A stretch of DNA of 64,000 nt from Deltaproteobacteria bacterium (GCA_003647275.1 QMMN01000002.1:21726-85725); one strand, 5' to 3'. Shown: positions 14,415-26,118, numbered from the stretch's first letter. Numbers and translations are program-made. Notes: a model not told the origin generated them from the sequence alone.

Positions 14415-16058
14415 ATGAGCAACCAGACTCAAAACAAGAAAGCTTTGCCAAAGATTTCTCTTTGCATGATCGTGAAGAATGAAGAAGAGATGCTTCCAAA
14501 GTGTCTCAGCAGTGTTAAGCATTTTGTGGATGAAATCATTGTGGTGGACACGGGTTCAACCGATAGGACCGTTGACATAGCCCAGAGTTATGGCGCAAAG
14601 GTCTATCACCATCCCTGGGAGGATGACTTCAGCAAGCACCGAAACCAGTCCATTTCTTATGCCGCCGGAGATTGGATCTTCATTATGGATGCGGATGAGG
14701 CGTTAAGGCCTGGAGATGGCGTAAAGATTCGAGAGGCGATTTCACACCCTGAAATCGATAGTGTGATGGTTGTCGTGGTCAATTTTTTTAATCAGGGAAC
14801 AAGTCAGAGTTTATTCAATCAGGTGCGTTTGTTCAAAAGAGATCCAGCCATCTTTTACTCGGGCATTGTTCACAATCAGCTGACCGGATACCAGTCAACC
14901 GTGGCCTGTTCCGCACAGATCTATCACTATGGTTATGATTTGGGCCAGGAGAGGATGCAGGCAAAGTTTGTTCGTACTTCCTCTCTGCTAAAGAAAAGAA
15001 TAAAACAGGACCCTGAAAATTTTCGCCATTATCATGACCTCGCTGTCAGCTATTCCATGAACAGAATGTTCGATGAAGCTGTCTCGGCAGGTATCAAGGC
15101 GATTGAATTAGCCAAAAACACTGAAAAAAAAGGCGGGGTTCTGATTCTGTGGACCTACTTTATTGTGGCATCCTCGTTGCTGATACAGAGAGATTTTCAG
15201 GGGGCAGAGAAGTATGCCCTTGAGGCACTGAAAAGATTTCCTAACCATCTTGATTCCCATTTTATTCTTGTAATGGCTTATCACGGATTGAAGGATTGGG
15301 CCCGTGTGAAAGAGGTTTCCGATGACTATTTCAATCTTCTCAAGGCCGTGCAGGAGCACCCCGGTCGCTTTGGCTATATTGTCAACAATACCACTGGAGA
15401 AGCTTGGCGCGTTCATCTGGTTTTAGGAGATTATTACCTGGAACAAGGGGATGTTCATCGGTGTAAGGAGGCATTTGATCATGCTTTTTCCGGTGCGCCA
15501 GTGGCATTTGAATGCCTGAAGATTATTGCCGACAGTTATAAAAACCGATCCTTATGGAAGGAGGCCGCCTATTATTACCAGCAGGCCTTCAAGGAAAAGG
15601 GTGACTTTCTGGGGGCCTTGTTGGGTCTGGCCTTGGCAAAGAATCGCCTTGGTAAAAAGAGAGAGGCCATCCAATATTATGAAAGGGCTTTGGAATTAGA
15701 ACCTGATTCCATTGAGGCCCTGGTCAACTTGGGCGACCTTTACTGTGAACAAGGGGAGGAAGATCTTGCTCAAAAATTCTATGAGAAGGCCCTGGGCATT
15801 GAATCCAAACTCGTCAATGTTTCACTTCGGCTGGCTAACTTTTCCGTGCAAAATGGTGAACTTGAGAAATGCGTGAGCTATTGTGAAAATATTCTTGAAA
15901 GCCTTGGTCTGTCGTTCAACCGCCCACTGGAAAGCGTATCGGATTTGGCTGATCTCTTTTTGATTATTGGCCATGAGTTGGATAAATCTGGGAGGGATGA
16001 CCTGTTTAGGGAGGCCATGAAGGTCGCGTTAAATCTAAAACCAGAACTAATAGCATAG
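14415..16058 (+). CDS. GT2 glycosyltransferase with C-terminal TPR domain (paralogue 1)
   Basis: GT2 motifs are ISLCMIVKNEEEMLPKCLSSVKHFVDEIIVVDTGSTDRTVDIA, HHPWEDDFSKHRNQ and DWIFIMDADE. The C-terminal half is TPR repeats. ATG 14415 (RBS GAAGGA) is preferred over the ORF-track start at 14379. Confidence 0.85.
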   Translation: MSNQTQNKKALPKISLCMIVKNEEEMLPKCLSSVKHFVDEIIVVDTGSTDRTVDIAQSYGAKVYHHPWEDDFSKHRNQSISYAAGDWIFIMDADEALRPGDGVKIREAISHPEIDSVMVVVVNFFNQGTSQSLFNQVRLFKRDPAIFYSGIVHNQLTGYQSTVACSAQIYHYGYDLGQERMQAKFVRTSSLLKKRIKQDPENFRHYHDLAVSYSMNRMFDEAVSAGIKAIELAKNTEKKGGVLILWTYFIVASSLLIQRDFQGAEKYALEALKRFPNHLDSHFILVMAYHGLKDWARVKEVSDDYFNLLKAVQEHPGRFGYIVNNTTGEAWRVHLVLGDYYLEQGDVHRCKEAFDHAFSGAPVAFECLKIIADSYKNRSLWKEAAYYYQQAFKEKGDFLGALLGLALAKNRLGKKREAIQYYERALELEPDSIEALVNLGDLYCEQGEEDLAQKFYEKALGIESKLVNVSLRLANFSVQNGELEKCVSYCENILESLGLSFNRPLESVSDLADLFLIIGHELDKSGRDDLFREAMKVALNLKPELIA

Positions 16059-16132
16059 TGTCCATCTTACGAAGATTAATCATTTGAGGTGTGATTTCTA
16101 CTTGTCCGTTCGCTTAGACTGATAGACGAAGA

Positions 16133-24000: not shown

Positions 24001-24111
24001 TTTTTTTTGCCATGATGAGTGCCCCAAAAAGTTCACGATGGTCATTCAACGGACTTTTTCAAAGCTCTCAGATATCGCAAGACCAAATGATGTGATTTTG
24101 GAGGCTACACT

Positions 24112-26118
24112 GTGAAACAACCAACGGTTTCGCTTTGCATGATCGTTAAAGATGAAGAGGAGAGCCTGCCTCGTTGCCTGTCAAGTGTCAAGGACTATGT
24201 AGATGAAATTGTGGTCGTGGACACCGGTTCAACCGATAGAACGGTAGAGATTGCAAGAAGATTTGGGGCACAGATTTACCATCATCCATGGGAAGACAAC
24301 TTTAGCAAACACCGCAATCAGTCCATAAGTTATGCGACCGGCGACTGGTTTATGTATCTAGATGCGGATGAGGAGATCGTTGAAGGCACCGGCCCGCTTA
24401 TCAGAGAAGCCATCCAAAATCAGAAGGTTGATAGCATCACCTTCGAGTTTATAAGCCTTTATGCTGGTGGGAAAAAGAGCTTTCATACCCAGCAAAGGCT
24501 CTTCAGAAACGACAGGGGAATCCATTTTGAGGGCCGCATTCATAACCGGATTGTTGGGGTTAAGACAACTTGCTTGTATCCTATCAAGGTGCTTCACCAT
24601 GGCTACAATGTTCATCATGAAAAGGCAAAACTTAAGCATGAAAGAAGGATAAAGATTTTAAAACGAGAAATCGAGGACGATCCTCAAAATCCCATCCACC
24701 ACCACTATCTGGCTGCCTCGTATTTGTCCGTTCCTGACTATGAGCAAGCAGCCCAAGAAGCCCTGAGCGCCATAGATCTTGCTGACAAAAGAGGAGAGGC
24801 AGGGAGTTTCTTTTATGCCTGGACGCATTACATTGCAGCCGCTTCCCTTTATCATTTGGGACATCTTGAAAGGGCGCAAAAAGTCTGTCGGTTGGGGTTG
24901 GACCGTTTCCCTGATGATCCGGACTTGCATTTTGTATCCTGCCAGATCGCCTTTGATCAAAAGGATGGAGTGAATCTGGAAAAACATGCGGCCAGATATC
25001 TGGCCTTGCACGATGAGCTTACCTACAAACCCGAAAAAAGAGGGATGATTCACTGTGTCACTTTCGATCAGGCCTGGAGGATATGGTGGTTCATGGCAAT
25101 GAACGATGCCAGGGGGGGACGACAGCAAGATTATGAACGAAAACTGAACAGGGCCATGGAGACGGCCCCGAGAAGATCTGAAGTCTACCATACAACTGGG
25201 CGTTATTACATGGGAAGCGGAGACCTTAAGAAGGCGAGTACAGAACTGGACAGGGCCTTTGGAGAAGATCCATATAATATGGATATCATTTATTCCCAGA
25301 TTGAGCTTTTCATTCACCTGGGAGACGAACAGGGAGAAATCAATTGGTGGCAGGAGCTTTTAAAGCGTTTCCCGGAAAGCAGACTTAAAATGCTTCAGGA
25401 GGTCTGTAAGGCCTTTGATGAACAGCGCACTCCCGATGCCCGTAAACTTTTGAAGGCATTGCTGGCAAGGTGGCCCCAAGACAAAGACGCCCTTCGGCTG
25501 ATGGCTGAATATGTTAGGGAGAAAGAAGACCTTACAGACGAAGTTGCTTATTTAAGAAATTTACTACCTATGGCCAGGGATGAAAGGGACCTTATCATAC
25601 AAGTCGGCCTGGTTTTGCTAAGAAAAAATTTTCATGAAGAGGCCCGTGATTTTCTTGAAAAGGGGGTGGCATTAAAACCAGATGAACCGGCAGCTCACCT
25701 TGGTCTGGCCACAATCCATTGGCACCGGGGAAACGTGGAACTTTGCGTGGCCGAGTTAGACCAGGTTTTACGGTTGCTTGGCAAGCCGTGTAAAATGGAG
25801 ATTACAGTCGTCGAAGAATTGGGGGCGATCTGCGCTTTGATCGGAGAGCTGCTGCTGCCCAATGGAGATATTGATGCGGCCGTCATGGCTTATGAGATGG
25901 CCCTGGAGATGAATTGCCATCTGACTCATGTCTATCAGGGCTTGGGCCTTGCCCTTAAAGAGATTGGTCGATTGAAGGAATCATTGGATCATCTCCAGAC
26001 CGCCCTGAGGCTTTCGCCAAATACAAGCGAGGTCCTTGGGCAAATGGGAGATGTTTACCGTCTTATGGGAAACATGAAGGCGGCTGAGTTTTGCTATCAT
26101 AAGAGTCAGAGTATATAA
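24112..26118 (+). CDS. GT2 glycosyltransferase with long C-terminal TPR domain (paralogue 3, diverged)
   Basis: GTG start. VSLCMIVKDEEESLPRCLSSVKDYVDEIVVVDTGSTDRTVEIA, HHPWEDNFSKHRNQ, DWFMYLDADE. The TPR tail is about 450 aa. Confidence 0.85.
   Translation: MKQPTVSLCMIVKDEEESLPRCLSSVKDYVDEIVVVDTGSTDRTVEIARRFGAQIYHHPWEDNFSKHRNQSISYATGDWFMYLDADEEIVEGTGPLIREAIQNQKVDSITFEFISLYAGGKKSFHTQQRLFRNDRGIHFEGRIHNRIVGVKTTCLYPIKVLHHGYNVHHEKAKLKHERRIKILKREIEDDPQNPIHHHYLAASYLSVPDYEQAAQEALSAIDLADKRGEAGSFFYAWTHYIAAASLYHLGHLERAQKVCRLGLDRFPDDPDLHFVSCQIAFDQKDGVNLEKHAARYLALHDELTYKPEKRGMIHCVTFDQAWRIWWFMAMNDARGGRQQDYERKLNRAMETAPRRSEVYHTTGRYYMGSGDLKKASTELDRAFGEDPYNMDIIYSQIELFIHLGDEQGEINWWQELLKRFPESRLKMLQEVCKAFDEQRTPDARKLLKALLARWPQDKDALRLMAEYVREKEDLTDEVAYLRNLLPMARDERDLIIQVGLVLLRKNFHEEARDFLEKGVALKPDEPAAHLGLATIHWHRGNVELCVAELDQVLRLLGKPCKMEITVVEELGAICALIGELLLPNGDIDAAVMAYEMALEMNCHLTHVYQGLGLALKEIGRLKESLDHLQTALRLSPNTSEVLGQMGDVYRLMGNMKAAEFCYHKSQSI

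Follow-up and report, generated by a model that had tools for sequence, protein, structure and literature searches.

How two bacterial glycosyltransferase genes that differ widely over much of their length come to share an almost identical segment close to their 3' ends is the question raised by a 64-kb stretch of DNA (64,000 nucleotides (nt), hereafter the window) from a metagenome-assembled genome (MAG) labelled 'Deltaproteobacteria bacterium' (GCA_003647275.1 QMMN01000002.1:21726-85725). Three plus-strand paralogues lie in the window, which belongs to flagellar motility and chemotaxis: g1 (14379..16058; an open reading frame (ORF) of 559 amino acids (aa), or a 547-aa call with the start at 14415), g2 (22255..24000; 581 aa from the first ATG, with database calls beginning at 22339 or 22372), and the more distant g3 (24112..26118; 668 aa), whose protein is ~35% identical to g1 and to g2. 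All three had been described from the DNA alone as a glycosyltransferase family 2 (GT2) domain with C-terminal tetratricopeptide repeats (TPRs), and Pfam agrees in all three ORFs, placing Glycos_transf_2 at the N-terminus (E 4e-26 to 6e-23; PF00535 over residues 27-146 of g1) and TPR repeats after it. The g1 and g2 proteins are identical in sequence to RLB83756.1 and RLB83759.1, respectively, both labelled 'hypothetical protein' by NCBI.

Here we report that the 3' third of g1 and g2 has very probably been homogenised by at least two interlocus gene conversion events, probably from a g1-type sequence into g2. The third paralogue, g3, is not involved.

Identity profile and synonymous sites of g1 and g2

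The preliminary description of this DNA had singled out a 158-nt patch, 15862-16019 in g1 against 23801-23958 in g2, and its hand count of 143/158 identical positions (90.5%) without indels, with exact runs of 32 and 30 nt, proved exact on recomputation, as did the peptides quoted for it. The 30-mer that opens the patch occurs at only two places in the window (0 chance matches expected), and no additional copy of the patch is present elsewhere in the 64 kb. The accompanying estimate by eye, that g1 and g2 are 70-75% identical in DNA over most of their length, was too high: a codon alignment gives 63.4% nucleotide identity overall (58% for the proteins) and 51% in the middle.

Along the two genes the identity profile is strongly non-flat. 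In g1 coordinates, nucleotide identity amounts to 74% over the GT2 core (14448-14708), 51% in the middle (14709-15494), 77% in an outer tract (15495-15857), 89.5% in a tract core (15858-16028), and 44% in the last nine codons (16029-16055), and identity at third codon positions passes from 0.37 in the middle to 0.75 in the tract and 0.11 in the last nine codons. The similarity stops sharply 27 nt ahead of the g1 stop codon, leaving an unconverted 3' tail on the plus strand (16029..16058; 44% identity, third positions 1/9) with its g2 counterpart at 23968-24000. In maximal-segment permutation tests p was <= 2e-4, whether all sites or third positions were used, the best segments being 15496-16028 (433/533 identical) and 15799-16019 (196/221 identical), and change-points fell at ~15495 (all sites) or ~15600-15660 (third positions) and at 16028.

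Rather than standing by itself, the 158-nt patch is composed of an 87-nt young segment and part of an older tract of ~534 nt. The older tract extends over 15495..16028 in g1 (plus strand, 534 nt, residues 373-550, 81% identical) and over 23434..23967 in g2, the probable recipient (plus strand), at a constant offset of 7939 nt and with no indels. The youngest segment is nested within it, at 15858..15944 in g1 (plus strand, 87 nt), and its nucleotide alignment places the g2 copy at 23797..23883 (plus strand).

Codon identity was counted among codons for the same degenerate residue in both genes. Identical codons account for 63/173 in 14379-15460 (36%, with 38% expected from codon usage), 53/87 in 15495-15857 (61%), 25/25 in 15858-15944 (100%, that is, no synonymous differences), and 15/23 in 15945-16028 (65%). 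Over the 158-nt patch the same codon is used at 38/46 positions (83%) vs the 63/173 of the 5' two thirds (Fisher p = 1.6e-8); the 25/25 segment differs from the adjacent 15945-16028 (Fisher p = 0.0013), and a run as long as this inside the tract has a permutation p of 0.0013. The proportion of synonymous differences (pS) between g1 and g2 is 0.79-0.89 outside the tract, where it is saturated, 0.56 in the outer tract, 0.25 in the core, and 0.46 over the whole tract; the corresponding Nei-Gojobori synonymous distances (dS) are ~1.0 in the outer tract and 0.31 in the core, with saturation elsewhere. The preliminary description had named two findings that would speak against conversion, a flat profile and a divergence of synonymous sites that is equal within the patch and beyond it, and neither is observed. 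Its suggestion that the conversion is recent holds for the 87-nt core alone; the tract measures ~534 nt rather than 158 and has at least two ages.

The likeness of the GT2 catalytic-core block (plus strand; g1 14448..14708, g2 22390-22642, g3 24121-24373), at 73-74% nucleotide identity among the three genes, is protein-level constraint only, because g3 is equally similar (73%) and synonymous sites are saturated (pS 0.79 between g1 and g2, where the non-synonymous proportion, pN, is 0.13).

Within 15858-15944 there are four codon differences, all of them non-synonymous, which include a cluster altering four of six nucleotides (CTTGAA/TTCATA, giving LE/FI) and an F/C exchange. Both LE/FI and F/C fall in the helix formed by residues 495-509 and the loop that follows. 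To judge by the orthologues, the derived states are FI in g2 and F in g1. Positive selection was considered for this segment and set aside, as four non-synonymous against zero synonymous codons are too few sites for significance.

Relatives, direction of transfer and competing explanations

Database searches returned both g1-type and g2-type homologues, several of them paired on one contig. Neighbour-joining trees of 23 proteins were built from separate gene regions with 300 bootstrap replicates. Over residues 28-361, g1 belongs to a g1-type clade (99%) together with P0002/P0003 (91%) and g2 to a g2-type clade (91%), the two being sisters in 0/300 replicates; over residues 373-547 they are sisters in 298/300. 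The incongruence between regions implies that the duplication predates the divergence of these genomes and that only the 3' third was homogenised. An orthologue comparison, as had been proposed beforehand, shows the homogenisation to be absent from the paralogue pairs of four other genomes, whose protein identity is 0.31-0.43 over the outer tract, where g1 and g2 reach 0.73, and 0.50-0.54 over the patch, where they reach 0.86; at the DNA level, the pairs of L001 and L002 have a pS of 0.66-0.84 in the region. Across genomes, orthologue pS in the patch is 0.72-0.96 (0.76 between g1 and its closest orthologue, L004), and no part of the protein is less conserved among orthologues than the outer tract (0.26-0.60).

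The best database match of g2 is its paralogue g1 (60%), above the true g2-type orthologues (55%). As to direction, inside the tract the identity of g2 to P0122 of its own clade goes from 0.60 to 0.42 and that to the g1-type P0002 from 0.52 to 0.55. The nearest non-paralogous relatives of g1 are P0002/P0003 in both regions, and in the outer-tract tree g1 and g2 together join these g1-type proteins with 54% bootstrap. On these sequence comparisons a g1-type donor and g2 as recipient are favoured, not established.

Several g1-type proteins (P0003, P0013, P0014, P0017, and P0041) lack exactly one 34-residue TPR unit at alignment columns ~423-456, inside the region equivalent to the tract, so the repeat number of the distal module is evolutionarily variable.

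Could protein-level constraint by itself account for the likeness, the C-terminal motif being an interaction surface at which the paralogues never diverged and no recombination having taken place? The motif ..LESLxDLAxLFLxIGHELDKAGRxDLFREAAEIAL.. is recognisable in 17/17 aligned family members, with near-invariant columns at C498, C502, L523, L528, I530, G538, L542, and A550, and the Nei-Gojobori ratio of non-synonymous to synonymous divergence (dN/dS) inside the tract is low, at 0.15-0.22. The constrained C-terminal motif that the preliminary description offered as its second option is in this sense real, being moderately conserved family-wide (~50% between paralogues elsewhere), but it leaves the synonymous identity unexplained: protein selection does not keep synonymous sites, and codons are shared at 83% in the patch and 100% in 15858-15944 vs 36% elsewhere. 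Moreover, the pairs of the four other genomes reach no more than 50-54% identity in the motif and 31-43% across the outer tract, the outer tract is poorly conserved among orthologues and yet 0.73 identical between g1 and g2, and the trees disagree between gene regions. Codon identity, the other-genome pairs, outer-tract conservation, and the trees together largely exclude pure constraint, to which we assign very little probability. Selection might instead act on the nucleic acid itself, through a promoter lying inside the patch and serving the next gene, or through an RNA element, a proposal that we regard as scarcely credible. The 32-nt run does contain a sigma-70-like match (TTGAGA, a 17-nt spacer, and a TG-extended GAAAAT; 9/12) at 15862-15890 and 23801-23829, in both cases upstream of the next gene; such matches occur at chance level, however (2-3 per 900 nt vs 1.0-1.2 expected), this one covers ~30 nt of a 534-nt tract, its hexamers are changed in L004, and synonymous sites of the patch are unconserved among orthologues. 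An internal sigma-70-like promoter was rejected on its chance frequency and lack of conservation, and an RNA element likewise, with 0 Rfam matches anywhere in the window and a patch that folds no more stably than shuffled sequence (z +1.08 and +0.95 sense; +0.55 and -0.54 antisense). No antisense ORF of >=100 aa runs across the patch.

Recombination of another kind would have made g2 a chimera, by unequal crossing-over or partial duplication, or would have brought in both 3' ends from some third source, paralogous or foreign. In relatives, genes of the g1 and g2 types are adjacent tandem repeats, and such arrays are liable to unequal crossing-over; the 6.2-kb block of higher G+C between g1 and g2 looks inserted, as in a rearranged locus, and a further copy might exist if the MAG is incomplete. 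Unequal crossing-over, on the other hand, yields three genes or one fused gene, so that an extra loss is required; a single chimera leaves unexplained both the nested ages (dS ~1.0, 0.31, and 0) and the abrupt loss of similarity 27 nt short of the stop codon; and the database matches from the same contig contain no third close copy. We consider these routes improbable, and neither a chimera nor a third donor accounts for the ages and the abrupt 3' boundary with the economy of conversion. Gene conversion, the first option of the preliminary description, is supported over pure protein constraint by the identity profile, the synonymous sites, the region trees, and the pairs of other genomes.

A number of points weigh against conversion as we describe it, or against parts of that description. 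Donor support is modest (the 54% bootstrap), and there is no close g2 orthologue with a complete 3' end, that of the nearest lineage (L004) being truncated. The nearest relative found has 66% protein identity, too distant for the events to be dated against speciation: a search of GTDB species genomes with the tract protein returned no closer relative, JGI metagenome contigs gave distant or fragmentary matches only, and the best g1 match in a profile search of GTDB genomes was 36% identical, from a Desulfobacterales MAG. On third positions the Bayesian information criterion (BIC) of a three-level model (744.2) and of a two-level model (740.9) shows no clear preference; it is chiefly the 25/25 run that speaks for two events. 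With a C-terminal motif conserved family-wide, part of the protein identity comes from constraint. Finally, the sequence is a metagenome assembly; the gene calls of NCBI, JGI, and ENA give the same g1 and g2 protein sequences, differing in their starts alone, and this agreement of three sources counts against an assembly artefact.

The course of events that we propose begins with the ancient duplication of a GT2-TPR protein glycosyltransferase gene of the GmaR/SunS-like kind, giving g1 and g2. Non-reciprocal homologous recombination between the two direct copies has then very probably homogenised their 3' thirds in this lineage, in at least two events, an older one of ~534 nt (15495-16028 in g1; 23434-23967 in g2) and a recent one of ~87 nt (15858-15944 in g1; 23797-23883 in g2). 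The exchange may have been of RecA type, seeded in the relatively conserved C-terminal motif, between direct repeats that lie 7.9 kb apart now and were probably adjacent earlier. The minimal processing segment for recombination in E. coli is ~25 nt; exact runs of 30-32 nt exceed this length and might render the region self-reinforcing for further exchange. The outcome would be a pair of enzymes with diverged catalytic and proximal-TPR parts and a shared module of distal TPRs and C-terminal cap, which presumably contacts a common partner, be it flagellin, a chaperone, or each other.

Interlocus gene conversion among bacterial paralogues is known to produce the same non-flat profile, sharp boundary, and low local synonymous divergence, and the same tree incongruence and nested tract ages between direct repeats on one replicon. 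There is no difference in kind here, the exchange being limited to the distal TPR module of putative flagellin glycosyltransferases while the catalytic domains remain in separate ancient clades. The conversion, though genuine, is of a common type; it took place in a lineage that is uncharacterised and reveals no new mechanism.

Enzyme family and position of the tract in the predicted fold

By sequence and predicted fold, the kin of g1-g3 are GmaR and SunS rather than FlmG. Residues 23-211 of g1 align to residues 8-202 of GmaR (glycosyltransferase domain, PDB 22ao; E 3.5e-35), SunS matches the g1 GT2 domain with E 7e-26, and D104, D106, and E107 are invariant in the family alignment, so that a DxD motif is present. 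An AlphaFold2 (AF2) model of g1 (predicted local distance difference test, pLDDT, 91; predicted template-modelling score, pTM, 0.82) consists of a GT-A domain over residues 26-183 and an all-helical solenoid over residues 190-558, for which the best whole-chain Foldseek matches are ThuS/SunS (7msn, 7msk; E ~1e-15, 366-391 aligned columns), followed by the TPR domains of the O-GlcNAc transferase OGT. The best NCBIfam family is TIGR04195, the SunS-type S-glycosyltransferases (E 1.5e-30; 106 bits), but membership was rejected at scores of 99-118 bits vs a curated equivalog cut-off of 350: these are fold relatives, not members.

In the AF2 model, the tract starts at a helix boundary, residue 373 lying between helices 359-372 and 376-388, and spans the last twelve helices of the solenoid. 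The tract core comprises three helices, 495-509, 520-536, and 540-553, together with the loop that joins the first to the second.

GmaR of Listeria monocytogenes is a GT2-TPR flagellin O-GlcNAc transferase that also serves as anti-repressor of MogR, and its TPR part has been proposed to recognise flagellin (PMC9638930). Its likeness to g1-g3 lies in the N-terminal GT2 domain of ~180-200 residues, the TPR or helical-repeat solenoid that comes next, and the flagellar locus, and its difference in that g1-g3 are 559-668 aa long and form three paralogous copies. No chain of the GmaR TPR, linker, or anti-repressor part was present among the 60 best of 74 sequence matches, nor among the 50 fold matches listed. 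SunS and ThuS share with g1-g3 a GT-A domain acting directly on a polypeptide, with helical repeats after it; in g1-g3 the TPR part is much longer and the context is flagellar, not a bacteriocin cluster.

Homology to FlmG-type enzymes, to which the preliminary description had likened the three genes, does not hold. FlmG of Caulobacter crescentus has an N-terminal TPR part and a C-terminal GT-B domain (PMC7591256), so that the domain order is reversed and GT-B stands against GT-A/GT2; g1-g3 were accordingly rejected as FlmG-type, and the analogy is functional only. What the systems would have in common is a modular logic, by which TPRs that bind flagellin give acceptor specificity to the attached glycosyltransferase domain (PMC7591256). 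The same logic is met in Maf-1, which has a TPR domain binding flagellin, as cited in a passage of PMC13317340. Maf proteins carry an MptE-like domain, which here is found on a separate gene (4761-7031), and a Maf-type assignment was dropped as Pfam finds no PF01973 domain in g1, g2, or g3. In both FlmG and Maf the catalytic part is non-homologous to that of g1-g3. Selection of the acceptor by the TPR half, as suggested beforehand, would be reasonable by precedent. 'GT2 domains with TPR repeats' already serve to predict flagellin glycosyltransferases in Clostridium (PMC13317340).

The flagellar locus and what a shared distal module would mean

Around g1-g3, the gene order is a Maf-like MptE-domain gene (4761-7031, minus strand; PF01973, E 1.3e-32), a giant GT9-GT2-GT4-TPR gene (7341-11591), a nucleotidyltransferase, a B12/radical-SAM enzyme, g1, two further giants, g2, g3, flagellin, and FliD. 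The flagellin gene (26444..27646, plus strand; Pfam Flagellin_N and Flagellin_C) lies directly 3' of g3, with Ser+Thr making up 24% of the central domain of its product, and is followed by that of the filament cap FliD (27891..31427, plus strand; 1178 aa; Pfam). In three related contigs, g1-type and g2-type genes are directly adjacent to each other and immediately upstream of flagellin, and one related contig has a g3-type gene between such a pair and flagellin. From this context, here and in the three related contigs, g1 and g2 are putative flagellin glycosyltransferases, and flagellin is the presumed acceptor of g1-g3. The flagellin is ~80% identical to those of L001 (7340-8350) and L002 (4008-5147), while the g1 and g2 orthologues there are ~53-56% identical, which implies that the enzymes evolve faster than their presumed substrate.

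The two giant multidomain glycosyltransferase genes between g1 and g2 (16133..22379, plus strand) are, by their Pfam domains, a GT4-GT1-sulfotransferase (991 aa) and a DUF2334-GT1-GT2-TPR protein (1068 aa, 19173-22379). Their G+C content is slightly raised (0.48-0.50 vs 0.45-0.46), which suggests an insertion contributing sulfation and extra sugars to the glycan. In all, the locus has at least five glycosyltransferases with C-terminal TPRs, besides the TPR C-terminus (1-597) of a gene cut by the window start, and also holds the Maf-like MptE-domain gene, the B12/radical-SAM enzyme, and a methyltransferase. It is putatively an unusually large flagellin glycosylation island.

Other repeats were seen in the window. 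A 68-nt intergenic element occurs twice in opposite orientation, at 14174-14241 (plus strand), in the gap just upstream of g1, and at 35188-35255 (reverse complement), the copies being 88% identical; it starts with TTGAC, ends in a G+C-rich CCCCGTCCGGAAGGG(N)GGGG hairpin, and has no Rfam match. Compared with shuffled sequences, the second copy folds better (z = -2.05) and the first does not (z = -0.16). A second intergenic direct repeat, 82-85% identical, is located at 38389-38475 and 47205-47338, upstream of ORFs starting at 39008 and 47357, with an insert of ~45 nt in the copy at 47205. Gaps between flagellar genes (56271-56392, 61941-61969, and 62740-62768), located upstream of fliI as well as around the genes for hook length and a flgD-like protein, hold short repeats of the ATGACCA(A/G)TGAC type and inverted ones whose complementarity reaches 96% over 25 nt. 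Together these may represent a common motif with a regulatory or terminator-like role.

The pair g1/g2 offers a clean, well-controlled case of partial, domain-restricted concerted evolution in bacterial paralogues, and for g1-g3 the analysis corrects the family assignment from FlmG-like to GmaR/SunS-like. A gene such as g2, whose best match is its own paralogue, would lead orthology assignment and tree building astray in GT2-TPR families. The module of residues 373-550, common to two otherwise diverged enzymes, gives a construct boundary for binding and domain-swap work.

It is conceivable, though in our estimate doubtful, that the homogenisation was itself selected, the last six helical hairpins forming a shared docking unit for flagellin, an export chaperone, or a partner enzyme that is kept matched between the two proteins. 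If so, specificity for sugar and site would lie with the GT2 and proximal TPR parts, which have diverged, LE/FI and F/C would be paralogue-specific specificity residues held against conversion, and the tract would be a natural map of the acceptor-recognising part of a GT2-TPR flagellin glycosyltransferase.

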